Below, one piece after another: positions 9,527-61,273 of a DNA stretch of 64,000 nucleotides; position 1 is the stretch's first letter; every line of letters starts with the position of its first letter. The stretch lies in the IMG/VR virus record IMGVR_UViG_3300008952_003529; one strand, written 5' to 3'. A program made the translations under genes and the position numbers. The notes below the pieces were generated by a model, which was given only the letters and a program-made list of their open reading frames with translations, was not told where the DNA came from and made no database searches. Source of the DNA: a virus.

Positions 9527-11473
9527 ATGTCTAAGAAGTTCACACTTGGTCAATTGACCGAAGGTATCCGAGCGCGCCACATGGGCGATCACGGTCGGCG
9601 CCTTACAGAAAAGTGGACTCGGACTGGTCTCTTGCGGGGTCTCGAGAGCGTCCATCGTGAAAACATGGCACAGTTGCTCGAGAACCAGGCAGGTCAGATT
9701 TTACGAGAGCAGAATACTCTCGGTGGTGGTGGGCTAGCGCCTGCAGCTTCATCTGGTGACATCCGAGGTTTCACTAATATTGCATTCCCAATCGTTCGTC
9801 GAGTATTCGGCGGTCTGGTTGCGAATGAGCTGGTTTCAATCCAGCCTATGAGTTTGCCGTCCGGCCTACTCTTCTACCTTGACTACACTTATGGTTCTAA
9901 CCAGGGTGGTGTTGCGGAAACTAGTTCCGGTGCAGATACCGGTCTTGGTACTAGCACTAAGAGTACATACGGCAAGGGTCAGTCCATATATAATAACCCC
10001 GCGGGTAAGGGCGTTCGCTCTGGTTCGCTGGGAACGGGTGGACAGTATGACTTGGCTGGTTCTGGTTATTCAAAGGTTCATGCAAGGGTCGATGTTACTC
10101 TTGATGCAACCAACCAGTTCGTGCTTGGAAACAGTGCAACTCAAAGTCGTACAACGTCAGCTGGCTCCGCTGCATCTTCTGGTGCAGATGGTCGGTTTCT
10201 CCAGTTCGATCCCCAGGTAACTAGGGCAATCGATTCAGAGAGCGGAACATTCCGTTTCGTTACCGTTGATCTTGGCACCCTCGGGTCCGAGTTCGATCCT
10301 CGTATGATTAAGGAAGCAGCCCTTGTTATATCTGGTACTGACTCCGCGCTTCAAAACCAGGCTGGTGATGGTCTGGCAGCTCCCTATACTGACCTTGCGG
10401 TTCCTGGCGAGACATGGCAGGGCGGCCGGAATGTGTATAACATCCGTCGTCTTAACCAGCTCGTTAAGTCCAGCTCAGATGGTGGCGCCATTTCTAGTGA
10501 TCCACTGGCTGCTGCAAGTAAGGCTGGTTCTGCACTTTTGATGGTACTTTCTGGTACGAACATCGGTACAGGCGACCTCGGTTGCTGGTCAGTTGTCTTT
10601 CCGAAGAGCAACTCTCTGAATGTTGGTAACGATGGCGATACCCTTGTGGTTCCCGTCTTCGAGTCTAACTTCAGCCAGAGCGATGCGCAACCGGTTATTC
10701 CCGAAATCGACATCAAGATCGAGAGCATCTCGGTCGTGGCGTCCACTCGGAAGCTGCGTGCTCGTTGGTCCCCAGAGCTTGCTCAGGACTTGAATGCTTA
10801 CCACAGCCTTGACGCTGAGGTTGAGCTTACTCAAATCCTCTCTGAGCAGATTGCTCTTGAGATCGATCGTGAGATCCTTAACGATCTCTTGATGGAAGCT
10901 GATACCAACTTCTACTGGAACCGTTCGCCTGGTGACTTTGTCAATAAGCGTAACGGTGCAGCTGTTTCTAGATCCGCATCCGCCGGGCCTTCCTTTACTG
11001 GTACGGTTCGCGAATGGTACGAGACCCTGGTCGAGACCATTATCGATGTTGCTAATGAGATTCATCGTAAGACTCTCCGAGGCTCTGCAAACTTCATGGT
11101 CGTTGGCCCTGATGTTGCTACCATCCTCGAGGCTTCGATCCTCTACCGCCCAGCCTACACCATTGATGGTGACGGTCAGGTGACTGGTGGAATGACTCTC
11201 GGCGCAGAGAAGGTCGGTACCCTGAGCAACCGTTTCACGGTCTATAAGGACCCCTACTTCCCACGCAACAAGATTCTTGTTGGGTATAAGGGCGGTAGCT
11301 ACCTTGAGACTGGTTACGTATATGCTCCTTATGTACCCCTGATTGTTACTCCGACAATCTTCGCTCCTGAGGACTTCACTCCTCGTAAGGGTGTGATGAC
11401 TCGGTATGGCAAGAAGATGGTACGTTCCGACTTCTACGGTACAGTCACGGTCATGAACATGGATATTATCTAA
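9527..11473 (+). CDS. Major capsid protein (T4 gp23-like) with a large insertion
   Basis: gp23-type motifs PIVRRVFGGLVANELVSIQPM, RKLRARWSPELAQDL, EQIALEIDREI, GYVYAPYVPL and GVMTRYG; AAGGAG Shine-Dalgarno. Confidence 0.97.
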   Translation: MSKKFTLGQLTEGIRARHMGDHGRRLTEKWTRTGLLRGLESVHRENMAQLLENQAGQILREQNTLGGGGLAPAASSGDIRGFTNIAFPIVRRVFGGLVANELVSIQPMSLPSGLLFYLDYTYGSNQGGVAETSSGADTGLGTSTKSTYGKGQSIYNNPAGKGVRSGSLGTGGQYDLAGSGYSKVHARVDVTLDATNQFVLGNSATQSRTTSAGSAASSGADGRFLQFDPQVTRAIDSESGTFRFVTVDLGTLGSEFDPRMIKEAALVISGTDSALQNQAGDGLAAPYTDLAVPGETWQGGRNVYNIRRLNQLVKSSSDGGAISSDPLAAASKAGSALLMVLSGTNIGTGDLGCWSVVFPKSNSLNVGNDGDTLVVPVFESNFSQSDAQPVIPEIDIKIESISVVASTRKLRARWSPELAQDLNAYHSLDAEVELTQILSEQIALEIDREILNDLLMEADTNFYWNRSPGDFVNKRNGAAVSRSASAGPSFTGTVREWYETLVETIIDVANEIHRKTLRGSANFMVVGPDVATILEASILYRPAYTIDGDGQVTGGMTLGAEKVGTLSNRFTVYKDPYFPRNKILVGYKGGSYLETGYVYAPYVPLIVTPTIFAPEDFTPRKGVMTRYGKKMVRSDFYGTVTVMNMDII

Positions 11474-18300: not shown

Positions 18301-18457
18301 TGAGTCATTCAAAGTTGTCATGGATGACACAAACAATAGCGCGCAAGATGTTGAAAGCAACAAGTTGAATGGTAGGATCGTTGTCGTACCCACAAGGGCG
18401 ATTGAGTTTATTGCGATAGATTTTATCATTACAAACAGTGGCGTAGACTTTGCGTGA
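15308..18457 (+). CDS. Contractile tail sheath protein 1 (gp18-like)
   Basis: N-terminal FRSPGFFEREID; C-terminal PWFAPAGFNRG, RINPI, VIFGQKT, ALDRVNVRRMM and VPTRAIEFIAIDF. Confidence 0.96.
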   Translation: MAEQTFRSPGFFEREIDASTRKTEITGVPAGIIGTAEKGPAFVPVTVGSFQDFVNRFGTIDPDRFGPYAVQAFLKNRTAATYMRVLGAGANETTSQITNTQNYGTVVNAGLVLSGNVSASTSNANNGVVQFLCARHDAAASEAVAMPEFTDNPSFNNADAMKIVRGVIFNATTARTQVIDLDETWTSTVDDECQIDSGGLFAVVISSSLGTTFANQEDNNGTVVPGVKIVSASLDPASPAYISNVLNTDPTKFVQEQHLLYLDFAVEDEIAPVATSAAGVALLSGSANFGKTLQSGAGNEFTMLFGRYDTRYTTPTSPQIISQPFGGTEYPLFRFESLSDGAYGNDKVKISIANLRASTNKNYRYGTFEVQVRRFDDTDLAPQILESYPECNLDPNSESFIGRKVGDYKTWYNFDAENDDERRIIVSGKYPNQSVYIRTVINEAVYRSEVPTDSLPFGFSGIPALKTSDSLTDNSLSRLEFGGVPYGNTGNTRLWGDCSADGLVMTGSIIPPLPMRFKVTRGAVSTTAFMSGWPGDDERVDGRFYWGVKFERCPKEDDVTNAILNQNISSAPNSTVAAYTKFQGISKLDALVSGSAVDAFNANKFTLAKVALAGTGSDTTAATLLSEVTASAKEHMLEAAYIRNGVPDSQTYVVEDPDGYGKRITFATLAQSSSIKFNRFTAYLKFTTPMYGGWDGLNILDKDMSLMNDRATSTDASGETGKASSEFSATTIGLASNPAGDGRLNNNIFAYREAARIMTDPMTVRNNILSIPGIRDSYVTDWAADRTKAYSMAIYLMDIPSWSENAGRLFGDENRTLIKSSSDSFPDVRETAEQFESRAIDNNYCATYFPDVYITDSNNQQAVLVPSSVAALAALGYNDAVAYPWFAPAGFNRGSLGMVTNTDARLTASDRDDLYDVRINPIANFPNGGFVIFGQKTMQLSQSALDRVNVRRMMLELKRQVVAVANKILFEPNNAATRGRFINLVTPLLAAIQAQQGIESFKVVMDDTNNSAQDVESNKLNGRIVVVPTRAIEFIAIDFIITNSGVDFA

Positions 18458-18490: not shown

Positions 18491-21400
18491 ATGGCTGAAC
18501 TGACATTTAAGAGCCCCGGGGTTTCTACAAGAGAAATCGATCTATCGGGCCCAACTAAGGCTGCTCCGACCGGAATACCTGCAGGTGTGATTGGAACAGC
18601 CAATCAGGGCCGAGCATTTGTGCCAATAACAATGGCTACGTTTGCAGACTTTGTGGCTGAATTCGGTAATACTGATGGTGAAAAGTTTGGACCTATGGCG
18701 ATGCGTCAATGGTTGAATTACGCCAGAGCCGGTACTTACCTTAGAATTCTAGGAGTAGGAGACGGGAAGAAGAGAAATTCGAACGGAACTGTCACTAATG
18801 CTGGTTTCGTAGTAGGCGCTGAGCAGTGGCGCGCCACTGGCATAGTTGGAGACAATGCGTACGCTGGTTCCACAACTACAAACGGTGGCGTTCTTGGACG
18901 AACTTGGTTCCTCGGCTGCATCATGGAAGAGTCGGGAAGTTCAACTGCATTCTCGTCAGCAGGACTGCAGTCTGTTCAACCCATCCTTCGCGGTGTCGTT
19001 ATGGCTCCTTCCGGCGTTGTACCGGCATTGAGCGCTTCAAGAAGTGCTATTTCCAACAACACTCCATTAGGTGCCCCTGGTGCAAATGATTACGCAGCTG
19101 CAGGAACGTTCGGCGCGGGCGCTACACAAGATGCCGGTTCCACGGTAGGATCAGTCAATCTCGCTGGTGGCCGTCAGGAATTTGTATTATTACTAAATGG
19201 TCATAGCCACACCGATGAGTATCCAACCATTATCACTGCTTCGTTTGATCCCAAGGCGCCCAATTATCTTTATAACGTTTTAAATACTGATTCTACTAAG
19301 ATCCAAAACGCTGGACACTATCTCTATGCGCATTGGGGGATCGATCCCGCCATAGCATATGTTACTGGTTCATCGCTGGTGGATGATGACTACGCCGCAA
19401 TAACTGAGGGTGGAACCGTTAAGACTGAGGATGTTGCATTCTTACTCACATCATCCATTAGCAGAAACAATAATGGTGACGCCAGTGTACCAAACTTTGA
19501 AGGGTTCGTTGACAGATTTCGTACAGCTTACTCTCCATACATTATCTCCCAGGCATACGGGGGAGTGAATTACAACTTATTTAGGATTCACGCTCTTGAC
19601 GATGGCGCGATTGGAAATACCAGGGTTAAGATCTCGGTCGAAAATATTACAAAGTCGACGAATACAAACAATCCGTATTCAGCGTTTGATTTACTGGTTA
19701 GAGACTTTAATGATACAGATTCTGAGCCGATTGTGATAGAAAAGTTCTCTAAGCTTTCATTAGACCCGGGTTCAGAAAGATATATCGCAAGACAAGTTGG
19801 AAATTACCACCTCTATTATGATTTTGATAAGCGCGTAGGTTCTCAAAAGCTTGTACTTGATGGTGCATATCCCAACAAGTCTAACTACATTAGAGTAGAG
19901 ACAAATAAGCTTCTGGATAACGCACAGCTTCCTGCGGATGTTTTACCCGTTGGTTTCCGTGGTCCAGCGCACCTCATTACATCAGGGTCCTCGATTTTCT
20001 CTGTTGCTGATAGCGCAGTAACGGACGTGATGGCCGGTGAAGTTGCATCTCAGCTCGTACAGCTACCCATTCCATATCGCTTAATGGTTTCTAAGAATAA
20101 GACTCCGAAAAAGTCGCTCGCCCCTGAGCTATATTGGGGTGTCCAGTTCTCGATTCAAGATAGCGTGGATGAGCCAAACCGGAACATTCAAACGAACAAC
20201 TCGATTGCATCCTATAGCACGTACTTTAACACATATTCGCAGAACGGTCAAGCAGCAGTCGTTGGTAATAACCAGGGTGTTGCTGATGCAAGCGGAACGA
20301 TTTTAGATTGTGATAAGTTCAATAACAACAAGTTCTCTCTTGAGAATATCCAAGTTGTTGTAACCACCGACACCACCCCTCGAGCAGATTCATCGCAATG
20401 GGCAGCAGCACAGTATATGCGGTCCGGTATCGCATCGGCGAGTATTCCTGATATTGATGGAACCGCTAGAACATCTGGTGATTCGGGTGGGTCTAGACTA
20501 CTTAGTGTAGCAACAGACTTTGGTTTGACGTCGACAAGAAGGTTCCTGAAGTTCACCACTATCGTGCAGAATGGGTTTGACGGGTCTAATATCTTTAACA
20601 AGGAAAAGCTAGCATTCTCAAACATTGCTGTAACGAAAGAAATGGCTGATGTCACCGCACAAGGCGGAGTAACTGGTCAGGTTACCGCTGCTTATCGAAA
20701 AGCAATGGATGTCTTAAAGGAACGCTCAGATGTGGATATTCAGTTGTTGGCTATTCCAGGTCAGAGAAATTCCGCCGTCACTGATTATTGTATGCAAGCT
20801 GTTGAAGAACGGTTTGATGCCATGTATATTATGGACCTCGAGGGGAAAGACACCTACAACGAGGTAATATCTGGTTCATCTCAGCTGGCGAGTGTTACAA
20901 ACACTGCGAATTCTTTTGCAGGGCGAAATTTGGATAACTCTTTCGCTGCTGCGTACTTCCCTGATGTGATTATGACTGATGTGGGTACTTCTACTAACGT
21001 ACAGGTTCCACCCAGCGTTGCGGTCCTCGGCGCGTTTGCACTAAACGATTCAGTCGCTTATCCCTGGTTTGCACCAGCAGGATTCACTCGAGGTGCATTG
21101 AAGAATGTTCTTGAAACACAAGTGAAGTTGAGCCGCTCAAACCTTGATGCTCTTTATGATGTAGACATTAACCCAATAACAGCATTCCCACAAACGAAGG
21201 GTGAGGTTGTGGTATTTGGCCAAAAGACTCTCCTCGCAGCACAGTCTGCGCTCGATAGAGTCAATGTAAGACGGCTTCTAATCGATGTTAGGCGCCAGGT
21301 TCGAGCGATTGGTGATACATTCCTCTTCGAGCCCAATAGGGAGTCAACGTTGGCGAGGTTCTCGGCTGCTGTTAATCCAGTTCTGGCCAGAATTCAAGCA

Positions 21401-21565
21401 CAGCAAGGTCTAGACCGATTCAAGGTACAGATCGACACTACCACAACGACGCAAGCCGATGTGGAAAATAACATTGTCAGAGGTAAGATTTTCCTCCAGC
21501 CGACAAGGTCCGTAGAGTTTATATCTCTTGATTTTGTCGTAACCAACGCTGGAACCGAAATTTAA
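18491..21565 (+). CDS. Contractile tail sheath protein 2 (gp18-like paralog)
   Basis: N-terminal FKSPGVSTREID; C-terminal PWFAPAGFTRG, DINPI, VVFGQKT, ALDRVNVRRLL and QPTRSVEFISLDF. Confidence 0.96.
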   Translation: MAELTFKSPGVSTREIDLSGPTKAAPTGIPAGVIGTANQGRAFVPITMATFADFVAEFGNTDGEKFGPMAMRQWLNYARAGTYLRILGVGDGKKRNSNGTVTNAGFVVGAEQWRATGIVGDNAYAGSTTTNGGVLGRTWFLGCIMEESGSSTAFSSAGLQSVQPILRGVVMAPSGVVPALSASRSAISNNTPLGAPGANDYAAAGTFGAGATQDAGSTVGSVNLAGGRQEFVLLLNGHSHTDEYPTIITASFDPKAPNYLYNVLNTDSTKIQNAGHYLYAHWGIDPAIAYVTGSSLVDDDYAAITEGGTVKTEDVAFLLTSSISRNNNGDASVPNFEGFVDRFRTAYSPYIISQAYGGVNYNLFRIHALDDGAIGNTRVKISVENITKSTNTNNPYSAFDLLVRDFNDTDSEPIVIEKFSKLSLDPGSERYIARQVGNYHLYYDFDKRVGSQKLVLDGAYPNKSNYIRVETNKLLDNAQLPADVLPVGFRGPAHLITSGSSIFSVADSAVTDVMAGEVASQLVQLPIPYRLMVSKNKTPKKSLAPELYWGVQFSIQDSVDEPNRNIQTNNSIASYSTYFNTYSQNGQAAVVGNNQGVADASGTILDCDKFNNNKFSLENIQVVVTTDTTPRADSSQWAAAQYMRSGIASASIPDIDGTARTSGDSGGSRLLSVATDFGLTSTRRFLKFTTIVQNGFDGSNIFNKEKLAFSNIAVTKEMADVTAQGGVTGQVTAAYRKAMDVLKERSDVDIQLLAIPGQRNSAVTDYCMQAVEERFDAMYIMDLEGKDTYNEVISGSSQLASVTNTANSFAGRNLDNSFAAAYFPDVIMTDVGTSTNVQVPPSVAVLGAFALNDSVAYPWFAPAGFTRGALKNVLETQVKLSRSNLDALYDVDINPITAFPQTKGEVVVFGQKTLLAAQSALDRVNVRRLLIDVRRQVRAIGDTFLFEPNRESTLARFSAAVNPVLARIQAQQGLDRFKVQIDTTTTTQADVENNIVRGKIFLQPTRSVEFISLDFVVTNAGTEI

Positions 21566-41316: not shown

Positions 41317-42720
41317 ATGGCATCCACTATTGCATTATTAGATTCGGTTCCATCCGGCCAATTTTCACAGTATAACAAAAATTTTCAAGAAAAGATTTTG
41401 CAGGGCTTGTTATCTGACAAAACTTGGGCAATGCAGATGGTAGAAGTTATGCGCTCAGATTTTTTTGAACTTCGATATCTTGAATATCTTTGTGAAAAAT
41501 ACTTTACGTACTTTGCTGAGTACCGCTGCTTCCCAACACAGGTTTTGCTCATTAGTATTATTAAGGATGCCCTAAGCGAAGACGGTGATATTTTGCTCAG
41601 AGATCAAATAGTATCATATTTGATAAGAATGAAAGAAAACCCGAGCCCAAATGATCTGGCGTACGTTAAGGCTAAGGCGCTAGATTTTTGTAAAAGACAG
41701 GCCTTTAAAGAAGCCCTTGAAGAATCAGTTAATTTGATCACCACCGGTGAATTTGAGCATGTTATTACTCTAATGAAGAACGCTGTTTCGATTGGGATGC
41801 CCAATACTGCTGGTCACGATTTTTTTGAAGATATGGAAGCGAGATTTTTGAAAATCCAGCGTTGCGTTTGCCCAACAGGCTTAGCAGAATTGGATTCGAG
41901 AGAAATTTTAAATGGTGGCCTGGGACGAGGTGAAATTGGCGTCGTTGTTGCCAACACTGGTGTCGGAAAATCTCATTGGCTTGTGGCAATGGGAGCGAAC
42001 GCAATGAGGAATGGAAAAAATGTTCTTCACTACACTTTTGAGTTGACAGAGCAGGCTGTTGGATTGAGATATGATGCCAATCTGTGTAATATATCAGCGT
42101 CTGATGTAATTGACCATAAGAAGACTGTTCAAGACTACTATGGGAAAAATGAAGGATTTGGCCGATTGATGATCAAAGAGTATCCAACAGGTTCCGCATC
42201 TGTGGTGTCTATTAGGAACCATATCGAGAAATTAGCTTTTCGTAATTTCAAGCCAAGCGTCATAATCGTAGATTACGCAGATATTATGCGCTCCACCAAG
42301 TCATATGACTCTTTACGACACGAATTAAAGCTAATTTATGAGGAGCTAAGAAATTTGGCCATGGAGCTTAATATTCCTATATGGACTGCATCACAAGCAA
42401 ATAGGGATTCTGCAAATTCTGATATTGTTGGGCTTGAGAACATGTCAGAAGCATATGGGAAAGCCATGGTTGCAGATTTTGTAGTGTCGATTTCCAGAAA
42501 GGCAACCGAAAAAGCCACCGGTGCCGGCCGGCTATTTATTGCAAAAAATCGTGCAGGGAAGGACGGGATCGTTTTTCCTATTCACATTGACACAGCTACA
42601 TCTAAGATTAGCGTATTGGACGAAGATGTTTCTACACTTTCAGAAACAATCGAAAATGATGAGAAAGAAATGAAGTCTGCGCTTAGAAAAAAATGGAAGT
42701 CAATTTCAGGTATCGCTTAG
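41317..42720 (+). CDS. Replicative DNA helicase (DnaB / T4 gp41-like)
   Basis: GGLGRGEIGVVVANTGVGKS (Walker A), YTFEL, IIVDYADIM, IWTASQANR and IAKNRAG. Confidence 0.94.
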   Translation: MASTIALLDSVPSGQFSQYNKNFQEKILQGLLSDKTWAMQMVEVMRSDFFELRYLEYLCEKYFTYFAEYRCFPTQVLLISIIKDALSEDGDILLRDQIVSYLIRMKENPSPNDLAYVKAKALDFCKRQAFKEALEESVNLITTGEFEHVITLMKNAVSIGMPNTAGHDFFEDMEARFLKIQRCVCPTGLAELDSREILNGGLGRGEIGVVVANTGVGKSHWLVAMGANAMRNGKNVLHYTFELTEQAVGLRYDANLCNISASDVIDHKKTVQDYYGKNEGFGRLMIKEYPTGSASVVSIRNHIEKLAFRNFKPSVIIVDYADIMRSTKSYDSLRHELKLIYEELRNLAMELNIPIWTASQANRDSANSDIVGLENMSEAYGKAMVADFVVSISRKATEKATGAGRLFIAKNRAGKDGIVFPIHIDTATSKISVLDEDVSTLSETIENDEKEMKSALRKKWKSISGIA

Positions 42721-42731
42721 GGAGTTCCGGT

Positions 42732-45239
42732 ATGACATATGACTATAAAACGGCGGTCGAAAAATCGCTGGCTTATTTTGGTGGTGATGAGTTAGCTGCT
42801 AATGTCGTTGTAACGAAATATCTTTTGATGAATAAAGATGGTGAGTATCTTGAAGCCACACCTAACGATATGCACCGTCGTCTCGCAAAAGAATTTCACC
42901 GGATTGAAGCGAAATATGAGAACCCACTAACTGAAGAAGAAATATTTGATTTGTTGAAGGGATTTAAGAAGATAATCCCCCAAGGCTCTCCCATGGCTGG
43001 AATTGGTAACAATACCAAATTACAGTCTATCTCGAATTGTTTTGTCATTCCAGCGCCCGAAGACAGTTATGGGGGAATTCTTTCAACAGACCAAAGACTC
43101 GTTCAGATTGCCAAGCGCCGCGGCGGTGTTGGTTTTGATATAAGCACAATTCGACCAAAGGGCCTTTCTACTGCTAACGCTGCAAAGACTACCGACGGAA
43201 TTGAGGTCTTCATGGATCGCTTTTCTAATTCGTGTCGAGAGGTTGCGCAAGGTGGCCGCCGCGGCGCATTGATGCTTACGATATCTGTTCATCATCCTCA
43301 AATTCGTGACTTTATAAAAATCAAGAAAGACCTTAAAAGAGTGACAGGTGCGAATATTTCTATTCGTGTAACTGATGAGTTTATGGAAGCAGTTCAATCA
43401 AGCTCAAATGTACATTTACGTTGGCCTGTAGAGAGCAAAGAGTGCACGATATCAGAGTACGTTGACGCAAAAACGCTTTGGCATGAAATTATAGAGTCAG
43501 CTCATGCCACCGCTGAACCCGGATTGTTGTTTTGGGATACGGCAAAAAAGATGACTCCTTCTGATATTTACGCTAACGAAGGTTTTTCATCGTGCTCCAC
43601 AAACCCTTGCGGCGAGATTATTTTGTCTCCTCATGACAGCTGCAGATTGATGCTTGTGAACTTGACAAGCTTCGTAAAGAAAAAGTGGAAGTCTAATGCA
43701 AAATTTGACTTCGCTTCATTCGGCAAAGTGGTTCAAAAAGCTCAACGCTTAATGGACGACATGATCGATATTGAGATTGAGCAAGTTGAAAAGATTCTTA
43801 AGAAGATTGAGGCCGATCCAGAGTCTGGCGAGGTAAAGCAAATCGAGAAAGACTTGTGGACAAATATCCAGACGATGGCTGTTCTAGGGCGTAGAACTGG
43901 CCTTGGAATCACGGGACTTGGTGATACTTTAGCAATGCTGGGTGTACAATATGGTAGCAAAAAAAGCATCAAGCTCACTGAAGAAATATATCGAGCGCTA
44001 GCGGTTAATGCGTACTATTCATCTGCTGTCTTGGCAAAAGAACGCGGTGCGTTTCCTGCGCACGATCACGCCAAAGAGGATGGTCATCCATTTTTAGAGA
44101 GAATTTGGAAAGAAAATCCAGAAATTAAGGAAATGAATAAGGAATTTGGTCGCCGAAATATTTCAATAACTACGACGGCCCCAGCCGGATCAGTTTCTGT
44201 ACTGACACAAACAACTTCCGGTATCGAGCCAGCTTATATGCTACACTATACACGTCGTAAAAAAATTACAGGTCAAGACGAGGCTGCTAGTGTGGATTTT
44301 GTTGATGATAGTGGCGATAAGTGGCAAGAATATACAGTTTATCATCATGGATTTAGAGAGTGGATAGAACATTCGGCATTTCGCAGCGATGATGATCCTG
44401 AAGAGATGGTCGAACTGAGTCCGTATAAGTGTTCAACAGCCTCAGAAATTGATTGGGTTGCAAAAGTGAGAATGCAGGCAGCTGCTCAAAAATGGGTATG
44501 TCATGCAATCTCTAATACGACAAATCTTCCCGCAGATATAGACATTGAGACCGTTAAAGATGTTTATATGACTGGTTGGGAGCTAGGGTGCAAGGGTATC
44601 ACTGTATATCGTGATGGTTCACGAACTGGTGTTTTGGTCGCGAAAACAGAGGAAGAAGTTGACCCCCGGGAAAGTGAAAAGATCATCATAAAATCAGCTC
44701 CCAGAAGACCTGAAATATTAGACTGTGATATTCACCAGGCAAACATTAAGGGTGAGGCCTGGACGTTACTAGTGGGGTTAATGGACGGTGTTCCCTACGA
44801 AATTATTGGTGGTCTTGCGGAATATGTGGAAATTCCACGACGCTATATCACTGGTCAAATTCGGCGTCGCCCTCGTAAGTCAATGCCTTCGAAATATGAT
44901 TTAATTTTTGGGCAGAATGGTGACGAGATGACCATCAAGGACATTGTTAAGGTTTTTGATAACCCCAACCATTCGGCATTTACAAGGACAATTTCGTTAG
45001 CATTACGCCATGGCGTCCCGACCCAGTATTTGGTGGAGCAATTATTAAAAGATAAAGATGCGGATTTATTTTGTTTTTCAAAAGTCATTGCACGGTGCTT
45101 GAAGAAATATATCGCAGATGGTACAAGGGCTAGCAATGGCGTACTTGAGTGTGATTGTGAAACACCAGAAGACTGTAATGTTGTTTATCAAGAGGGCTGT
45201 GCGACATGCTTGACATGCGGCATGGCGAAGTGCGGATAG
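42732..45239 (+). CDS. nrdJ: Ribonucleotide reductase, class II (adenosylcobalamin-dependent, NrdJ-like)
   Basis: ISNCFV, RRGGVG, RRGALM, ANISI, thiyl-radical motif TNPCGEI, SCRL, TTAPAGSVS, ISNTTN, C-terminal EGCATCLTCGMAKC; no NrdB in the window. Start set to the ATG at 42732 after GGAG. Confidence 0.85.
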   Translation: MTYDYKTAVEKSLAYFGGDELAANVVVTKYLLMNKDGEYLEATPNDMHRRLAKEFHRIEAKYENPLTEEEIFDLLKGFKKIIPQGSPMAGIGNNTKLQSISNCFVIPAPEDSYGGILSTDQRLVQIAKRRGGVGFDISTIRPKGLSTANAAKTTDGIEVFMDRFSNSCREVAQGGRRGALMLTISVHHPQIRDFIKIKKDLKRVTGANISIRVTDEFMEAVQSSSNVHLRWPVESKECTISEYVDAKTLWHEIIESAHATAEPGLLFWDTAKKMTPSDIYANEGFSSCSTNPCGEIILSPHDSCRLMLVNLTSFVKKKWKSNAKFDFASFGKVVQKAQRLMDDMIDIEIEQVEKILKKIEADPESGEVKQIEKDLWTNIQTMAVLGRRTGLGITGLGDTLAMLGVQYGSKKSIKLTEEIYRALAVNAYYSSAVLAKERGAFPAHDHAKEDGHPFLERIWKENPEIKEMNKEFGRRNISITTTAPAGSVSVLTQTTSGIEPAYMLHYTRRKKITGQDEAASVDFVDDSGDKWQEYTVYHHGFREWIEHSAFRSDDDPEEMVELSPYKCSTASEIDWVAKVRMQAAAQKWVCHAISNTTNLPADIDIETVKDVYMTGWELGCKGITVYRDGSRTGVLVAKTEEEVDPRESEKIIIKSAPRRPEILDCDIHQANIKGEAWTLLVGLMDGVPYEIIGGLAEYVEIPRRYITGQIRRRPRKSMPSKYDLIFGQNGDEMTIKDIVKVFDNPNHSAFTRTISLALRHGVPTQYLVEQLLKDKDADLFCFSKVIARCLKKYIADGTRASNGVLECDCETPEDCNVVYQEGCATCLTCGMAKCG

Positions 45240-45243
45240 TGAT

Positions 45244-45639
45244 ATGAGTTATTCAGGTAAAGTTATAGACCATTTTGAGAACCCAAAAAATGTAGGAAGC
45301 TTCGATCAGGATGACCCTAGTGTTGGTACTGGGATTGTAGGCGCTCCAGCTTGCGGTGATGTAATGAAGCTTCAACTTAAAATTAGCGACACCGGCATTA
45401 TCGAGGATGCCAAATTTAAAACTTTTGGTTGCGGTTCTGCAATTGCATCCACCTCGTTAATAACTGTATGGGTCAAAGGAAAAACGCTGGAAGAAGCCTC
45501 AGAGATAAAAAATACTGATGTTGCAAAAGAGCTTTGTTTACCACCAGTAAAGATCCACTGCTCTGTGTTGGCAGAAGACGCGATTAAAGCTGCAATAGAA
45601 GACTATAGGAGAAGAAGTGCACTGGACATCAAAAATTGA
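45244..45639 (+). CDS. iscU: Fe-S cluster scaffold IscU
   Basis: DHFENPKNVG, GAPACGDVMKL, FGCGSAIAS and LPPVKIHC: three Cys ligands plus the LPPVK HscA-binding motif. Confidence 0.96.
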   Translation: MSYSGKVIDHFENPKNVGSFDQDDPSVGTGIVGAPACGDVMKLQLKISDTGIIEDAKFKTFGCGSAIASTSLITVWVKGKTLEEASEIKNTDVAKELCLPPVKIHCSVLAEDAIKAAIEDYRRRSALDIKN

Positions 45640-46219
45640 TAATAAAATTGAAAAAGTTGAGCTAAGAAAAAGCCCGGTCATTGTAAGAGTTAATAAATTT
45701 GACGAAGAATCAGCAAAAAAGTTTAACGATGAAATGGCTTTAGCACATAACACTGGACAAGATGTGATTCCAGTTGTTATTGATTCGTACGGAGGACAAG
45801 TTTACAGTTTGATGGCGATGATAAGCGCAATAAAGAATGCTGAAATACCCGTCGCTACGATCGTCGAAGGAAAAGCGATGTCCTGTGGTGCGATTCTTTT
45901 TTCATTCGGTGAAGAGGGTCGCCGTTTTATGGACCCCAATGCAACAGTGATGATTCATGATGTGTCGTCAATGGACATGGGGAAAGTAGAAGAATTAAAG
46001 GCTGGCGCAAAAGAAGCAGATCGTCTAAACGGTATTGTATACAAGATGATGGCTCAAAATTGTGGCAAGAAAGACGATTATTTTATGAAGATTGTCGACA
46101 AGAAGAAACACGCAGACTGGTTTCTGGATGCTAAAGAAGCAAAGAAGCATGGGCTTGCAAATCACCTCCGTGTTCCAAAGCTTTCTATAACGGTCGAAGT
46201 TAATATCGAGATGGAGTAA
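45617..46219 (+). CDS. clpP: ClpP-like serine protease
   Basis: IDSYGGQV, catalytic Ser in KAMSCGA, His in VMIHDVS, and WFLDAKEAKKHGL. Confidence 0.85.
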   Translation: MHWTSKIDNKIEKVELRKSPVIVRVNKFDEESAKKFNDEMALAHNTGQDVIPVVIDSYGGQVYSLMAMISAIKNAEIPVATIVEGKAMSCGAILFSFGEEGRRFMDPNATVMIHDVSSMDMGKVEELKAGAKEADRLNGIVYKMMAQNCGKKDDYFMKIVDKKKHADWFLDAKEAKKHGLANHLRVPKLSITVEVNIEME

Positions 46220-46223
46220 GGAA

Positions 46224-47183
46224 GTGGATAAAGACTTTTATAATAAATCTAGCTCTGATAGTCTGGGGTGGGAACCGTCTTGGTTCGGGTGTGAAGAGTT
46301 TAATAACGATCTAGTAAAAGCCGTCAAGGAGTGGCAGAAATCATACGGTTTAACAGCGGATGGTCTTGTTGGCCCAATGACGTATAGAAGGCTCTGGACC
46401 GAAAGGGAGACGAACATTACTGATTGGATGGATGCGTTACCATTAAAACGAACCTATCGAGATGGAGACAAGCACATCGTCCACAACGGGCACTTTATTC
46501 CCATAGAGTGGGACAAAGTAATTTTGTGGGATGAGTCTGATGGGTTCAAATCAAAAGACGGGTGCTACACAAGCTATGCCGGAAAGCCCGATCGTAAACC
46601 AACGATGTTTGTCAACCATTGGGACGTATGTCTCAGCGCAGAATCGTGCGCAAAGGTTTTGAATAAGCGTGGAATATCAGTACACTTTCTTATTGATAAT
46701 GACGGTACCATTTTTCAGATGCTAGATACGCAGCATAAGGCATGGCATGCTGGAATTCCTCGCTACGAAGGTGGGAACTCAAAGGGAATTGGCGTCGAAA
46801 TTTCTAATGCATATTACTTGAAATATCAAGACTGGTATACTAAACAGGGTCTAGGGAAAAGACCGGTTCAAGAACATGGTTATGTGCATGGAAGAACATT
46901 ACCTCCGTTTACAGACTTTTATCCTGTCCAACTTGAGGCCCTTAAGGCTCTTTGGAAAGCGATACACACTGGAATTGGAATACCCTTAGATTATCCTAAG
47001 AATGTAGAAGGTCACATCGAAACAGGGGTGCACAAAGAGTGTGAGCGAGGAAAATTTCACGGTTTTTGTAACCATTATAATTTCACTCGCGGAAAGATAG
47101 ATTGTGCCGGATTAGATTTACCGAAACTGCTACAAGATGTTGCTGCTTCTCCTGCTTATTGTATCGATAAAGAACGAGGATAA
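46224..47183 (+). CDS. Endolysin: peptidoglycan-binding domain plus N-acetylmuramoyl-L-alanine amidase
   Basis: AVKEWQKSYGLTADGLVGPMT (PG-binding); VNHWD, SVHFLIDNDGTIFQ, AWHAG, GIGVEISN and NHYNF..KIDC (Amidase_2-type). Confidence 0.85.
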   Translation: MDKDFYNKSSSDSLGWEPSWFGCEEFNNDLVKAVKEWQKSYGLTADGLVGPMTYRRLWTERETNITDWMDALPLKRTYRDGDKHIVHNGHFIPIEWDKVILWDESDGFKSKDGCYTSYAGKPDRKPTMFVNHWDVCLSAESCAKVLNKRGISVHFLIDNDGTIFQMLDTQHKAWHAGIPRYEGGNSKGIGVEISNAYYLKYQDWYTKQGLGKRPVQEHGYVHGRTLPPFTDFYPVQLEALKALWKAIHTGIGIPLDYPKNVEGHIETGVHKECERGKFHGFCNHYNFTRGKIDCAGLDLPKLLQDVAASPAYCIDKERG

Positions 47184-47187
47184 GATA

Positions 47188-47751
47188 ATGCCAGCATGTG
47201 ATGGAAAGCTTTTTAAAAAATTTAAGCGGGGCTCCGCTTTTGTTGAGACAGGGGCATATCTTGGCGAGGGCGTGCAAGCTGCACTAAGGGCTGGGTTTGA
47301 TAAAATCTGGACCGTTGAATTATCTGAGTCGCAGTACAAACATGTAGCCAAGAAATTTTGCGATAATGAAAAAGTTGTATGTTTATTTGGAGACTCGAGA
47401 GACCTTCTTGGGGAGATGCTGTTAAAGTGTAGAGACATGGACCCACTGATTTGGCTTGATGCACATGGCGGTCAATCAAACACGGGGGATATTACAATGC
47501 AAGATATGATTCCGCTTGAGTGTGGTATTATCAATAATGTGATGGAAAAACGAAGTTTTACGATTTTAATCGATGATTTCGGCTACAGTAACGACAAGAC
47601 TCTCCTAGAAGAAAATTGGATTGTTAAAGAAGTAAGAAGAATCTGGCCTGATGCTATTATTACTAGGGAAGACGGTTGCGGCGATCATCGCGGGGGATAC
47701 CGGACTATGCCCGGTTTTGTCTTAGCAGTGCGTGTGGAAAATAAAATCTAG
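47188..47751 (+). CDS. Class I SAM-dependent methyltransferase-like protein
   Basis: FVETGAYLGEG (motif I-like), IWTVEL, GDSRDLL, IWLDAH and ILIDD. Start set to the ATG at 47188 after GAGGA. Confidence 0.6.
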   Translation: MPACDGKLFKKFKRGSAFVETGAYLGEGVQAALRAGFDKIWTVELSESQYKHVAKKFCDNEKVVCLFGDSRDLLGEMLLKCRDMDPLIWLDAHGGQSNTGDITMQDMIPLECGIINNVMEKRSFTILIDDFGYSNDKTLLEENWIVKEVRRIWPDAIITREDGCGDHRGGYRTMPGFVLAVRVENKI

Positions 47752-48840: not shown

Positions 48841-50385
48841 GTGTCGTTAAAATTTACTGTTGATTTAACCGAAGAGCAGGCGTCTGTATTGTCTCTTGAT
48901 GTTATAACATTTTTAGACGCCTTATGTGAAGAGTTCAGTCTTACGATTGCTCATCTTCTGGATGAGCGTGGGGGATTTACACCTGGTTTTCTGGAAGAAA
49001 CGAAGTGGATACGAGAAAGCCAGTGGAAGATTGCGGATTTCTCAAAAGACCTCGAAGACAGACGTGTCGAAATTACTGGTCCTCCCGATCGAAAAATGAT
49101 AATCAACGCATTGAATTCCGGCGCGAATGTGTACATGGCAGACTTTGAGGACTCCAATTCTCCGACGTGGAGCAACTGTGTAAATGGCCAGATAAATTTG
49201 CGCGATGCGATTCATAACGAGATTGATTTTCATGATGAGAAAAGAGACAAAATGTACTCCCTCGGCTCCGAGCTAGCAGTGTTATTTGTTCGTCCCCGCG
49301 GACTTCATTTATCAGAGGGTCATGTGATTCATGATTTGTGGGATGCGCCAATTCCAGCAGCGCTCTTCGACTTTGGTGTTTACATTGCGAATAATATCAC
49401 CACCCTTGTGGAGACCGGCCGCAGTCCCTATTTTTATCTTCCCAAATTAGAGCACCACAATGAAGCTGCTCTTTGGAATAAGATTTTTTCATTTTCTGAA
49501 GAATATTTTGGCGTGAAGAATGGAGTTATTAAGGCAACTGTGTTGATTGAAACCCTTCCAGCGGCATTTCAAATGGACGAGATATTATACGAATTGCGAG
49601 AGCATTCAGTTGGGTTGAATTGCGGTCGGTGGGACTATATTTTTAGTTTCATAAAAACATTTCGAAATGACCCAAAGTATATTGTTCCTGATCGAGATGA
49701 AGTGGGTATGACGCAACATTTTATGCAGTCCTACTCGAGACTCTTAATACAAACATGTCACCGCCGGGGAGCGCATGCGATGGGCGGTATGGCTGCTCAG
49801 ATACCTATAAAGAACGACCCTGTAGCGAACTCAACCGCGATTAGAAAGGTAGAGCAAGACAAGATTCGGGAAGTAATGGATGGACATGACGGCACATGGG
49901 TAGCGCATCCAGGATTAGTGGCAATCGCAAAAAAAGTTTTCGATGAATATCTTATCACGCCCAACCAAATTAACAGACCTCTATCAAATATTGAGATATC
50001 AACTGAAGACTTGGTGGAAGTTCCTGTAGGATCTTTCACAGAGGAAATGTTAAGAAAAAATATAAAAATTGGATATGAATATATGAAGGCCTGGGTTGCG
50101 GGGTCTGGGTGCGTGCCTCTTAACAATTTAATGGAAGACGCCGCCACTGCTGAGATATCTCGTGCACAGACCTGGCAGTGGTTGCGGCATAACGTAATGC
50201 TTGATAACGGAGCTGTTGTGACGCAAGAGTATTTAGGCGCACTGTTTCAGGAAGAATTGATTGGTGAGTGCGGAGTAGCGTATGATCTATGGCACATATT
50301 GTGCTTTCAAAATAATATGGATGAGTTTTTAACACTACAAGCCTATAATAGCTTGGAATTAAATGGAAAATTGGAGATTCTCTGA
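48841..50385 (+). CDS. aceB: Malate synthase A
   Basis: [25 protein letters not shown] (catalytic Arg), [39 protein letters not shown] and [12 protein letters not shown] (catalytic Asp). Confidence 0.96.
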
Positions 50386-51623
50386 TGACAGCTAATAATC
50401 GATGGGACGGAATTACCCGCCCTTACTCCGCTGAGCAGGTAGATAAATTACGCGGCTCATTTCGTGAAAACTATGGTTTCGCAACACACGTTGCAACAAA
50501 GCTTTGGAACCAATTATGCTCTGAGCCCTACGTTCATGCAATGGGAGCTGTGACTGGAAATCAAGCGATGCAGATGGTCAAGGCCGGTACACCCTCGATT
50601 TATTGCTCTGGATGGCAAGTCGCCGCCGACGCGAATGATTCTCATTCCATGTACCCGGACCAAAGTTTATATGCGGTAAACAGTGTTCCAATGCTTATTG
50701 AAAAAATAAATAATGCTCTTCGTCGTGCCGACCAGGTCGAATGGATTGAAAATTGCGGGTCAATAAGAGACTGGTTCGCACCGATTGTTGCAGATGCAGA
50801 AGCAGGTTTCGGTGGAAACCTCAATGCGTTTGAATTGATGCAAGCAATGATTCGCGCCGGCGCAGCAGGGGTGCATTTTGAAGACCAGTTATCTTCGGCC
50901 AAGAAGTGTGGTCATTTAGGCGGAAAAGTTCTTGTACCGACCAGCGAGTTTGTTAAGAAATTGATAGCTGCTCGGCTAGCAGCGGATGTGATGGATGTAC
51001 CAACTATTTTAATTGCCCGTACCGATGCCGATTCAGCCCGTTTGATAACGTTAGATGTTGATCCTATAGACCAACAATTTATTACATCAAATGAACGAAC
51101 CGCAGAAGGATTTTATCATATCACTGGCGGGATAGATATGGCCATATCTCGAGGCTTGGCGTATGCGCCGTATGCCGACCTTCTTTGGTGCGAAACCAGC
51201 ACGCCTGATTTAGCAGAGGCGCAAAAATTCGCTGACGCTATACATGAAAAATTTCCCGGTAAGATGCTGGCGTATAATTGTTCACCTTCTTTTAACTGGC
51301 GCGCGAACCTCGATGATGAAACTATTGCAAAGTTTCAAAATTCTTTGGGGGAAATGGGTTACAAATTTCAGTTTATCACCTTGGCTGGTTTTCATTGCTT
51401 GAATTATTCAATGTTCAATTTAGCGCTGGATTACAATAAGCGAGATATGTCTGCATACGCCGAACTTCAAGCTGCTGAATTTGCCGCTGAAGATATTGGA
51501 TATACTGCTACAAAGCACCAACGTGAAGTAGGAACAGGATATTTCGACGCAGTTGCACAAACGATATCGTCAGATTCATCGACTTTAGCTTTAAAAGAGT
51601 CCACCGAAGCTGAGCAATTTTAG
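50385..51623 (+). CDS. aceA: Isocitrate lyase
   Basis: [33 protein letters not shown], active-site [35 protein letters not shown] and [12 protein letters not shown]. Confidence 0.97.
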
Positions 51624-52330
51624 TGAGTAGAATTGAATTATATGATGACAAGATAGGCGTTGTTGAATACGTTTCCCATATGGGAGAAGACATTACAGTT
51701 GTTAATAGCGCCAGGGTTTCTTTTGGGAAACATAAGGATGTAATGGATGACAAAGATAGAAAGCTTATTAAGTATCTTATCAAACATAAGCATACGTCAA
51801 CACTCGAACACTGTGTTATAACATATCGGTTCATAGTACCCCTTTTCGTTCGAAGCCAGCATCACCGTCATCGAACATGGAGCTATAACGAGATATCACG
51901 TCGTTATACTGACGAGAATCTCCGGTTTTATGAGCCAGCAAGTTTCAGAACGCAGCATAAATCCAATCGACAAGCTTCAAATATTAATGAGCTAAGGGAC
52001 CCTGTAGTGATACCAGACCTTTCGGATACGGATTATGGTATGACTGCATCTCAAGTTGTCAGTGATCATCACCGACGTTCTGTAATGTTATACAACGATC
52101 TTCTCAGGGTAGGTGTATGCCGCGAACAGGCTCGAGGTGTTCTCTCCCAAAACCTGTACACTGAGTATTACGGAACTGTCAATTTAAACAATCTTTTAAA
52201 GTTTGTTTCGCTTCGAACCCATGACGGTGCCCAATGGGAGATTCAACAAGTAGCAAAAGCTTGTTTAGAAATTGCTAAAAATTGCTGGCCAGAAACAATA
52301 GAAGCCTATCAAGAATTAACATCATCTTGA
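51623..52330 (+). CDS. thyX: Flavin-dependent thymidylate synthase ThyX
   Basis: VNSARVSF, LIKHKHTSTLEH, ThyX motif RHRTWSYNEISRRY, REQARGVL, LR...GAQWEI. Confidence 0.95.
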   Translation: MSRIELYDDKIGVVEYVSHMGEDITVVNSARVSFGKHKDVMDDKDRKLIKYLIKHKHTSTLEHCVITYRFIVPLFVRSQHHRHRTWSYNEISRRYTDENLRFYEPASFRTQHKSNRQASNINELRDPVVIPDLSDTDYGMTASQVVSDHHRRSVMLYNDLLRVGVCREQARGVLSQNLYTEYYGTVNLNNLLKFVSLRTHDGAQWEIQQVAKACLEIAKNCWPETIEAYQELTSS

Positions 52331-59117: not shown

Positions 59118-60146
59118 TTGTACGCAGGAAGTTTCGAGAGTTTTACTGAATGTTATATTGAGTTGATTAAAGAGGTCTATAACAATCCGACCTATATGTC
59201 AGCTCCTCGTGGGCAAAAGATTAAAGAAAAACTGGGTGTTTCATTTACAATCGAGAACCCCAGAGATCGAATTCCGTATGTTGCGGGTCGAAAATTTAGT
59301 ATTTCTTATATGGTCGCTGAGCTATTGTGGTACCTTTCAGCCAATAATAAGACTGAGTGGATTTCAAGGTATTCGGCTTTCTGGAAAGATATTAGTGATG
59401 ATGGTGTAACTGCAAACTCTGCTTATGGTGCCCGCTTGTTTGAGAAGCACCCCAAGATTGCCGATGGCCGTTATAGACAGTGGCAATATGTTGTAAATGA
59501 GCTTAATCGTGATAGAGATTCTAGAAGAGCCGTGATGCACCTACGTGTTCCAGCTGATAGTATCGATGCTCGGCTTGATGTTCCCTGTACTTTATCACTT
59601 CAATTTTTTATTCGTGATGAAAAGCTCCACATGATTGTGAATATGCGCAGTTCTGACCTTATTTTTGGGATTGCTTATGATATACCTGCATTTACACTTT
59701 TCCAGGAAATTTTAGCTGAGCAACTGGAAGTCGGCCTCGGTTCTTATACACACATGAGTAATTCTCTTCATATTTACGAGCGGCATTTCGAGATGGTCGA
59801 AGGTATTTTGGCCAGAGAAAATCGTACTCTTAAACTTCACGAAACTCATGGTCCAATGCCTCCACTCGGATCATTGAATTGTAAGCAGTGGGTTCTTGAA
59901 GGGTGGATTGAGACACTAATGAAAGCTGAAGATCATATTAGCAGCTTAACTAGCCCGATAGAAATTCAGCAAGCATTTAATACTCATTTCATATCGACAG
60001 AAGAAGCTGACAACGTTTGGTCAGACTGGGCCAGGGTCTTGGCCGCACACAGATTAAGAAAGCTTGGCTTTACTGAAGATGCGAACCGTGTTCAAAACCA
60101 GACGGCATTTTCTGGTTATTCATTCAACATTAAAAAAGAGGGATAG
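59118..60146 (+). CDS. Thymidylate-synthase-fold dCMP-modifying enzyme (dCMP hydroxymethylase-like)
   Basis: AELLWY, NSAYG, DSRRAVM, catalytic Cys in DVPCTLSLQF, NMRSSDLIFG and SLHIYERHF. GIAYDIPAF has Asp where dUMP-specific ThyA has Asn (GLPFNIASY). TTG start. Confidence 0.85.
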   Translation: MYAGSFESFTECYIELIKEVYNNPTYMSAPRGQKIKEKLGVSFTIENPRDRIPYVAGRKFSISYMVAELLWYLSANNKTEWISRYSAFWKDISDDGVTANSAYGARLFEKHPKIADGRYRQWQYVVNELNRDRDSRRAVMHLRVPADSIDARLDVPCTLSLQFFIRDEKLHMIVNMRSSDLIFGIAYDIPAFTLFQEILAEQLEVGLGSYTHMSNSLHIYERHFEMVEGILARENRTLKLHETHGPMPPLGSLNCKQWVLEGWIETLMKAEDHISSLTSPIEIQQAFNTHFISTEEADNVWSDWARVLAAHRLRKLGFTEDANRVQNQTAFSGYSFNIKKEG

Positions 60147-60148
60147 AA

Positions 60149-61273
60149 GTGACAAATTACGATTATCTTATTGTCGGCGCCGGACTTTTTGGTGCAACTT
60201 TTGCGAGGGAAATGACAGATGCTGGAAAAAAGTGCCTTGTTATTGACAAGCGTCCGCATATTGGCGGAAACGTTTATTCAGAAAATAGGAATGGAGTTGA
60301 TGTGCATGTATACGGAGCTCATATTTTTCATACTAGTAGTGATCGTATTTGGGAGTATGTAAATCGATTTGCAACATTCAACAATTACGTCAATAAACCA
60401 AAGGTCAGGTTTGGCGATAGGATTTTTTCTTTTCCTATTAATTTAATGACGCTACACCAGCTTTGGGGTGTGATGACACCTGCGGAAGCCGAGGCAAAGC
60501 TTAAGGAAGTTCGTATTCCATGCGAGAATCCAGATAATTTAGAGGACTGGATCTTATCTCAAGTTGGTCGTGAAGTATATGAGACATTCATTCGTGGATA
60601 CACAATGAAGCAATGGCAAAGGGATCCTCGAGAGCTACCTGCATCAATCATTAAGCGACTTCCCATTCGTATGGTTTTCGAGGAGAATTATTTCTTTGAC
60701 AAGTATCAAGGGATTCCTGTCAAAGGGTATACAGAGATGGTCAATAATATGCTTGAGGATATTACGGTCATGACCGGCATGGATTACTTCGCACAACGTG
60801 AACACTTCAATTCTTTAGCGGAAACAGTCGTATTTACTGGGAAGGTGGATGAGTATTTTGATTTTTGCCATGGTGAACTAGAGTATAGAACTCTCCGATT
60901 TGAGCATGAAGAGCTCGAAGGGGATTTCCAGGGAAATGCAGTTGTGAACTATACCTCACCAGACATTCCCTTCACTCGAATCGTTGAGCACAAACATTTT
61001 CTACCGTCTACCGCAAGCAAGTTGCCTAATACTATTGTTACACGAGAATATTCTGACGAGTATAAGCGAGGAAAGACGCCGTATTATCCCATTAACAATG
61101 ATCGAAATAACATGATGTATAAGAAATATGCAGCGATGGCCGCCGCGGAAGATGATGTAATTTTTGGTGGTAGGTTGGCAGAGTACAAATATTATGATAT
61201 GCATCAAGTTATTGGTTCTGCGCTTGTAAAAGCCAAGCGAGAGCTCAATAATCAATCAATGGAGAAAGAATGA
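60149..61273 (+). CDS. glf: UDP-galactopyranose mutase
   Basis: IVGAGLFGA (FAD binding), HIGGN, YGAHIFHT, GYTMKQW, YQGIP, LEYRTL, FTRIVEHKHF, PYYPIN and GGRLAEYKYYDMHQV. Confidence 0.96.
   Translation: MTNYDYLIVGAGLFGATFAREMTDAGKKCLVIDKRPHIGGNVYSENRNGVDVHVYGAHIFHTSSDRIWEYVNRFATFNNYVNKPKVRFGDRIFSFPINLMTLHQLWGVMTPAEAEAKLKEVRIPCENPDNLEDWILSQVGREVYETFIRGYTMKQWQRDPRELPASIIKRLPIRMVFEENYFFDKYQGIPVKGYTEMVNNMLEDITVMTGMDYFAQREHFNSLAETVVFTGKVDEYFDFCHGELEYRTLRFEHEELEGDFQGNAVVNYTSPDIPFTRIVEHKHFLPSTASKLPNTIVTREYSDEYKRGKTPYYPINNDRNNMMYKKYAAMAAAEDDVIFGGRLAEYKYYDMHQVIGSALVKAKRELNNQSMEKE

Follow-up and report, generated by a model that had tools for sequence, protein, structure and literature searches.

An aceB-aceA gene pair encoding a putative auxiliary glyoxylate shunt in an uncultured marine huge phage

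The malate synthase and isocitrate lyase genes

The analyzed sequence (hereafter, the window) is a 64,000-nt stretch of the IMG/VR virus record IMGVR_UViG_3300008952_003529 and corresponds to positions 78268–142267 of this record, which has a length of 178,344 bp. The window contains two adjoining genes, aceB and aceA (Table 1). According to profile searches and alignments with solved structures, their products are confirmed as genuine malate synthase A (MS) and isocitrate lyase (ICL), and both proteins are predicted to be enzymatically active.

The AceB protein exceeds the cut-off of the NCBIfam equivalog model TIGR01344 (EC 2.3.3.9; 685.6 bits, cut-off 594.5), covering positions 1–509 of the 511 in the model, and matches the PDB structure 3cux with E = 3e-172. 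In the phmmer alignment with the structures 3cuz and 3cux, AceB residues R151, E237, D265, and D433 correspond to R166, E250, D278, and D447 of the E. coli enzyme; we take R166 and D447 to be the catalytic Arg/Asp pair and E250 and D278 to be the Mg2+ ligands (PDB 3cuz). The gene starts with GTG, and the sequence GAGGGA is located 7 nt upstream of it.

As for AceA, the scores were 725 bits with the NF011645 model (EC 4.1.3.1; cut-off 562) and 556.5 bits with TIGR01346 (cut-off 275.9), and the structure 3i4e was matched at E = 8e-182. The models of the related methylisocitrate lyase, prpB, gave just 77–95 bits, far under their own cut-offs. Alignment to solved structures located the motifs SGWQ (75), DAEAGFGG (137), EDQ (166), KKCGH (173–177), ARTDA (211), and NCSPSFNW (298). 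The catalytic loop KKCGH, which includes the active-site Cys, and the Mg2+/substrate motifs are invariant across 10 phage homologues, and the N-terminus of AceA is shorter than that of bacterial ICLs by approximately 15–20 residues. Identity of AceB and AceA to solved structures is above 45–65%, and that to the enterobacterial proteins is ~47% (MS) and ~62% (ICL).

The two genes are linked by a stop/start overlap, where the TGA of aceB (50383–50385) and the ATG of aceA (50385–50387) have one nucleotide in common. A similar overlap joins the TAG of aceA (51621–51623) to the GTG of thyX (51623–51625), and 9 nt separate the stop codon of the upstream glutamine synthetase (GS)-like gene from the GTG of aceB. 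L120 and L121, which were assembled independently, show the same TGATG overlap, and the aceA/thyX arrangement recurs in L120 and in a further relative, L014. In remoter relatives, the overlap between aceB and aceA is replaced by a spacer of 10–60 nt. The aceK family (PF06315) had no match anywhere in the 178 kb record, while the positive control was matched in E. coli. In the same record, isocitrate dehydrogenase (ICDH), citrate synthase, aconitase, and phosphoenolpyruvate (PEP) carboxykinase were not found, the positive controls being matched for each of them. The initial annotation of the window, made without database searches, had described intact enzymes with catalytic motifs in the aceB-aceA order without aceK, coupled by TGATG and overlapping thyX by 1 nt, with an endolysin and ribonucleotide reductase (RNR) upstream. 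All these points agree with the profile matches, the structural alignments, and direct reading of the junctions.

Table 1. Features of the aceB-aceA region, in window coordinates
Feature	Position	Strand	Basis
RNR, large subunit	42693..45239	+	Pfam Ribonuc_red_lgC, 306.9 bits
IscU/NifU-type iron-sulfur (Fe-S) scaffold	45244..45639	+	Pfam NifU_N, 178.9 bits
ClpP-like protease	45617..46219	+	Pfam CLP_protease, 96 bits
Endolysin-type N-acetylmuramoyl-L-alanine amidase with peptidoglycan (PG)-binding domain	46224..47183	+	Pfam Amidase_2 and PG_binding_1
GlnII-like GS, 336 aa	47821..48831	+	Pfam Gln-synt_C, 76.5 bits
aceB, MS A, 514 aa	48841..50385	+	TIGR01344; Pfam MS_TIM-barrel and MS_C; PDB 3cux
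TGATG stop/start overlap aceB/aceA	50383..50387	+	read from sequence
aceA, ICL, 412 aa	50385..51623	+	NF011645; PDB 3i4e
TAGTG stop/start overlap aceA/thyX	51621..51625	+	read from sequence
thyX, flavin-dependent thymidylate synthase	51623..52330	+	TIGR02170, 164 bits (cut-off 87.9)

The ClpP-like gene is kept after the RNR gene across the whole lineage, and comparison within the lineage places the RNR gene at the upstream edge of a variable cargo slot. The GS-like protein scored 285 bits with the GlnII model NF041605, under its cut-off of 500, and its gene is present in some relatives only. The aceB and aceA genes are presumably transcribed together. Promoter-like sites in the 42–56 kb region did not exceed the level of shuffled sequences (33 vs 30.4), and terminator-like sites there are mostly intragenic. 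No transcription unit could be defined, and the phage encodes a sigma factor of its own.

The metagenomic origin of the assembly and the 66–70% identity with bacterial ICLs (among the matches listed) could suggest that bacterial aceBA genes were misjoined to a phage contig. However, both junctions are present in three independent assemblies from different samples: L120 (ENA, 85 kb) and L121 (assembled by Logan from an SRA run) come from other samples, show 98–99% nucleotide identity over >20 kb, and reproduce the GS-aceB-aceA-thyX order with identical overlaps. In at least 18 other IMG/VR viral contigs, the MS gene is located directly upstream of the ICL gene, and many of the pair-bearing contigs share the UvsX-exonuclease-DnaB-RNR-ClpP synteny. 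In codon-usage distance, aceB and aceA occupy the 53rd and 47th percentiles of the genome open reading frames (ORFs), and their GC content at third codon positions (GC3) is genome-typical.

The ratio of nonsynonymous to synonymous substitution rates (dN/dS) was calculated against the 98% identical strain L120, since synonymous sites were saturated in L014, L003, and L004, which were rejected as references. It amounted to 0.079 for aceB and 0.035 for aceA, compared with 0.03–0.12 for UvsX, DnaB, RNR, and the polymerase. Together with the stop/start overlap that links the pair to thyX and the virus-only clades described below, these data refute a chimeric or contaminated origin, the probability of which is negligible, and agree with the initial annotation, which had argued against host DNA and had suggested examining the junctions and searching IMG/VR for both genes. 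The pair is confirmed as intact, phage-borne, and under purifying selection.

Origin of the pair and earlier reports

In the likelihood trees, 20 viral MS sequences were separated from 28 named cellular sequences and one copy from a giant-virus metagenome-assembled genome (MAG) by a branch with a Shimodaira–Hasegawa-like approximate likelihood ratio test (SH-aLRT) value of 99.2. The 20 viral ICLs were split from 37 cellular ICLs with weaker support (SH-aLRT 87). Both enzymes thus fall into virus-only clades. The ICLs of Phage C48C1 and contig L031, which contain no MS gene, sit on long branches of the ICL tree. The initial annotation suggested phylogeny as a way to identify the donor and host lineage. 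No cellular clade encloses the viral sequences in either tree, and the cellular ICLs with the best identity (66–70%) among species representatives in the matches listed are scattered over Betaproteobacteria, Bacillota, Acidobacteriota, and Myxococcota.

Most IMG/VR carriers belong to one broad group, since they share the TerL protein (48–65%) and the DnaE polymerase (39–80%) with the study phage. The cassette of one 201 kb record, however, lies ~88 kb away from the polymerase gene. A metagenomic MS subclade shows another gene order, with small ORFs followed by AceB, AceA, UvdE, and RNase T, as in the virus of Nishimura et al. considered below.

Several sequences related to these trees deserve separate mention. 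P0011 (assigned to a 'Cytophagales bacterium' MAG) and P0134 (assigned to an 'archaeon') are publicly named proteins encoded on contigs of ~8–11 kb; they branch within the virus-only clades of ICL and MS and probably stem from phage contigs binned into cellular MAGs. The MS of the giant-virus MAG (L010, IMGVR GVMAG-S-3300013285-28) groups with the cellular Acidobacteriota/Myxococcota region outside the phage clade and has no adjoining ICL gene; either it was acquired separately, or it is an artefact of binning. In L015 (420 kb) and L016 (391 kb), aceB-aceA is bordered on one side by genes for AspRS/LysRS-type and IleRS-type synthetases, EF-Tu, and QueF and on the other side by those for a sulfotransferase and a mannose-6-phosphate-isomerase-type cupin; both contigs probably derive from very large phages equipped with translation genes.

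The initial annotation regarded a complete two-enzyme shunt in a phage as rare or undescribed. This view has to be abandoned, given the virome data of 2013 (PMC4053976), the operon published in 2017 (PMC5332604), 20 huge phages (10.1101/2025.02.27.640493), and the IMG/VR contigs mentioned above (at least 18). The aceA and aceB genes were found in Pacific Ocean viromes by Hurwitz, Hallam and Sullivan (2013, PMC4053976), who worked with marine viral communities likewise and proposed reprogramming of host carbon metabolism. Their data were obtained at the level of reads and gene families without genome context, whereas the context in the study phage is complete and replicated.

Subsequently, an aceBA operon was described in the complete 178,632 bp genome TARA_ERS478052_N000008 and explicitly presented by the authors as the first such case among complete viral genomes (Nishimura et al. 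2017, mSphere, PMC5332604). Like the study phage, this virus is an uncultured marine tailed phage with T4-like structural genes, has aceB followed by adjacent aceA on one strand without aceK, and co-carries sugar-nucleotide and polysaccharide genes. In addition, the MS of the Tara contig L113, which has the same gene order as TARA_ERS478052_N000008, belongs to the same virus-only clade. The two genomes differ in GC content (37.5% in the Tara virus vs 43.4% in the study phage), in the length of AceB (502 vs 514 aa), and in the junction (a 15-nt spacer vs a 1-nt overlap). The operon of the Tara virus is preceded by dozens of small ORFs and followed by UvdE and RNase T genes, whereas the pair studied here is preceded by RNR-ClpP-amidase-GS and followed by thyX and the polymerase. 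Although the two records are almost equally long (178,344 vs 178,632 bp), GC content, protein lengths, and neighbourhood rule out that the study phage is TARA_ERS478052_N000008.

According to the available part of the 2025 preprint on the Huge Phage Genome Collection (bioRxiv 10.1101/2025.02.27.640493), the collection of roughly 7,300 genomes contains 98 ICL and 22 MS genes, adjacent in 20 genomes; phages with MS originate from marine, soil, and plant habitats, and GS is found in 247 huge phages. The study window fits this description, the GS gene included. That part of the preprint is confined to counts and habitats; it contains neither a phylogeny nor an analysis of selection and does not treat presence/absence in single lineages.

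The initial annotation also considered that many characterized phages might already carry the pair, but the cultured, characterized phages of the phage collection include none with aceB-aceA, which speaks for the initial view. The sole authentic record of that collection with an ICL homologue (54% identity) is Phage C48C1 (OQ984149, 156 kb, Kyanoviridae), which has a NifU-like gene and an endolysin gene near the ICL gene. It differs from the study phage in that MS is absent, the ICL gene is annotated as hypothetical, and its product forms a long separate branch. Other aceA/aceB matches in the collection were rejected as cases of phage carriage, being Salmonella contigs or very short unannotated records of enterobacterial type. 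Six records filed as phages (AGRM01000005, AFYI01000007, OR845679, OR845746, OR850939, and OR851757) are 500 kb Salmonella contigs or unannotated fragments of 1.5–4.5 kb bearing enterobacterial-type aceA or aceB; they look like host DNA and could mislead surveys of auxiliary metabolic genes.

Compared with the E. coli aceBAK operon, the phage pair keeps the gene order, belongs to the same enzyme families, and retains the catalytic residues. Unlike that operon, it lies in a record without aceK and is followed by thyX, its ICL is N-terminally shortened, and the genes are embedded among phage replication and lysis genes. An IclR-type regulator was not seen, although no search aimed at it was made.

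Genome of the phage

The record has a GC content of 43.4%, no terminal repeat, and a CheckV completeness of 44%; 163 of its 173 ORFs are located on one strand. The window contains structural genes (terminase, portal, major capsid protein, and two sheath paralogs) and genes of replication and nucleotide metabolism (gp32, UvsX, exonuclease, DnaB, RNR, DnaE-type polymerase, a thymidylate-synthase-fold enzyme, and Glf). The aceB-aceA pair is flanked by the terminase, portal, capsid, and sheath genes upstream and by the DnaE polymerase gene downstream; all of these, together with the UvsX and DnaB genes, lie on the same strand as the pair. The relative L014 has the same gene block in a contig of 289,811 bp; the source, an uncultured marine myophage, is thus a huge phage, and the record covers part of its genome, the complete length of which is probably ~280–400 kb.

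Before the window, at positions 9935–30171 of the record, a sugar module encodes GDP-mannose 4,6-dehydratase (Gmd), two NAD-dependent epimerases, a PfkB-type kinase, a Zn-dependent dehydrogenase, and glycosyltransferases (GT) of the GT2, GT4, and GT6 families. The published aceBA virus from Tara has a comparable set of lipopolysaccharide (LPS) and capsule genes. Just after the DnaE polymerase gene (window positions 59118–61273), a gene of a thymidylate-synthase-fold enzyme is followed directly by that of UDP-galactopyranose mutase (Glf, 261 bits). As judged from family matches only, the former may be a deoxynucleoside monophosphate (dNMP) hydroxymethylase, and this arrangement would fit sugar-modified DNA.

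The two adjoining tail-sheath paralogs (window positions 15308–18457 and 18491–21565) exceed 1000 aa each. Profile matches of the first are confined to the C-terminal ~200 residues, pointing to large extra domains in each paralog. The major capsid gene (window positions 9527–11473) deviates strongly from the rest of the genome in composition (GC3 0.505, z = +3.2; codon-usage distance at the 98th percentile) and may be highly expressed with its own codon bias. In the record, a GroEL/Cpn60-like protein is encoded at positions 159218–160810 and a sigma-70 family factor with regions 1.2, 2, and 3 at positions 161138–161893. A one-piece transfer-messenger RNA (tmRNA) was found on the minus strand at positions 170290–170884 of the record, ~28 kb past the end of the window (Rfam RF00023, 125 bits). 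Its tag peptide is ANNNYYYEQALAA; the tmRNA gene adjoins that of tRNA-Ala(TGC) and gives no firm host.

Proposed role of the cassette and alternatives

The pair probably represents a phage-encoded auxiliary glyoxylate shunt organized as a two-gene cassette, whose expression, activity, and carbon fate are inferred. The phage ICL would split host isocitrate into succinate and glyoxylate, and the phage MS would condense the glyoxylate with acetyl-CoA to form malate. In this way, the two steps of the tricarboxylic acid (TCA) cycle that lose CO2 and produce NAD(P)H would be bypassed, and two acetyl units would yield one net four-carbon (C4) acid. Citrate synthase, aconitase, succinate and malate dehydrogenases, and PEP carboxykinase would be supplied by the host. 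Without AceK to shut off ICDH, the partition of the flux would depend on the amount of phage ICL. The C4 surplus would most likely be directed to aspartate for nucleotides and, via host gluconeogenesis, to sugar nucleotides for the glycosyltransferases and DNA-modification genes of the phage. The greatest benefit would be expected in carbon-poor hosts fed on acetate, lipids, or amino acids.

The carbon-supply role is plausible, since the record contains large sugar-nucleotide and glycosyltransferase modules and Glf. A demand for sugars seems evident from the predicted Gmd, two epimerases, PfkB kinase, GT2/GT4/GT6 enzymes, Glf, and the thymidylate-synthase-fold enzyme.

Several points weigh against this interpretation. 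In E. coli, the Km of ICL for isocitrate is usually much higher than that of ICDH; together with the failure to find AceK, this makes a real shunt flux uncertain. Genes for sugar nucleotides are frequent in huge phages, so that their link to the pair is anecdotal. Since the record covers part of the genome, the absences noted (aceK, integrase, and others) hold for its 178 kb only.

Furthermore, many contigs with the gp32-to-ClpP synteny do not contain aceB-aceA. In L135, the amidase, GS, and ThyX genes follow one another with nothing between them, and in L123 and L128 ClpP runs directly to the polymerase region. The neighbours of the cassette also vary, and its position relative to the amidase and GS genes differs among carriers. 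Lineage members were retrieved via RNR irrespective of aceBA; this retrieval was pattern-dependent and missed known pair carriers, and it supports presence/absence variation and no frequency. Given the absence from many lineage contigs and the varying place, aceB-aceA is dispensable and belongs to the accessory cargo that occupies a variable slot behind RNR-ClpP. That it adjoins thyX and GS here does not reflect a functional coupling conserved in the lineage and, for this reason, is weak evidence for a dedicated nucleotide-supply operon.

Variation is also seen among the nearest strains. Compared with L120 and L121, the window has an extra in-frame 306 nt at positions 45299–45604, corresponding to most of the IscU/NifU gene (reduced to a 29-residue remnant in L120), and an extra 494 nt at positions 47228–47721, within an ORF without database hits (47137–47751) in the amidase-GS interval. 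The IscU gene is thus gained or lost among near-identical strains.

The IscU/NifU gene is of interest for a different view of the cassette, in which it relieves iron and redox stress in place of supplying carbon. The skipped NAD(P)H-producing steps would ease the demand on the iron-rich Complex I, and the phage IscU-type scaffold would keep host aconitase loaded, so that iron-limited ocean hosts would remain productive during infection. Marine heterotrophs induce both ICL and MS under iron limitation, and the shunt serves as a marker of iron stress (PMC11069385). The IscU/NifU gene is located 3 kb upstream of the pair, the relative L014 has NifU_N, NifU, and IscA, and the NifU gene of phage C48C1 lies 3 kb from its ICL gene.

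Among sufficiently long lineage contigs, NifU was present in 7 of 12 with aceB and in 0 of 8 without it (Fisher p = 0.015, kinship ignored). However, L006 and L007, which represent one virus, were counted twice in this comparison, and the 29-residue remnant of L120 was scored as present; the co-occurrence is only a lead. Moreover, the nearest strains lost IscU but retain aceBA under selection, and IscU could equally serve Fe-S or RNR-related needs of the phage. The iron view is compatible with carbon supply and does not exclude it. We consider iron/redox relief a serious alternative or complement to carbon supply and, as a replacement for it, unlikely.

A broader proposal combines this lead with the phylogeny. 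It regards aceB-aceA as an old virus-specific mobile cassette that diversified within marine huge phages, moving between positions and phage lineages with signs of inter-gene recombination, rather than being captured repeatedly from hosts, and that travels here preferentially with the IscU-type scaffold as an iron-stress module. We treat this proposal as doubtful. If it is true, such a module would sustain the flux from aconitase to ICL and cut respiratory iron demand in iron-limited ocean hosts.

For TARA_ERS478052_N000008, a lysogenic role was proposed from LPS genes and a zeta-toxin homologue (PMC5332604); in a lysogenic or pseudolysogenic state, AceA and AceB would aid growth or survival of a long-term carrier host. 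The study record has a weak zeta-toxin-like P-loop match at its positions 167798–168376 (minus strand), but the Zeta_toxin family matches in all 14 control genomes, so this match carries little information. No integrase or resolvase was found in the 178 kb record, which fits use in lytic infection; the record is incomplete, and the missing part could hold lysogeny genes. The overall organization of the genome is also that of a virulent huge phage, with its own DnaE polymerase, sigma factor, RNR, DNA-modification genes, and a near-single-strand gene layout. The lysogenic role put forward by the authors of the Tara study finds no support in the study genome and is improbable here.

Still less probable is a diversion of glyoxylate into glycine to provide purines and one-carbon units, in which ICL would be the main enzyme and MS would be secondary. 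Phages with ICL alone are far commoner than those with the pair (98 ICL vs 22 MS genes in the available part of 10.1101/2025.02.27.640493), and C48C1 and L031/L032 are of this kind. On the other hand, in the study phage MS is coupled directly to ICL and is under purifying selection, and the order of the genes is the same in every pair-bearing contig, which argues that MS consumes the glyoxylate. A glyoxylate aminotransferase was not seen among the ORFs scanned.

With carbon supply as the preferred function, the study pair is a well-documented further example of a known phage cassette, not a discovery, and establishes no new principle. What it adds is that both enzymes belong to virus-only clades under strong purifying selection, that the cassette is optional within one lineage, where it occupies a variable slot as cargo, and that a link to Fe-S assembly and iron limitation is hinted at and can be tested. 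A glyoxylate shunt encoded by a virus would save carbon otherwise respired to CO2. Phage-borne genes of central carbon metabolism alter carbon processing by infected cells, and at any given moment such cells account for a considerable part of the bacteria in the ocean.

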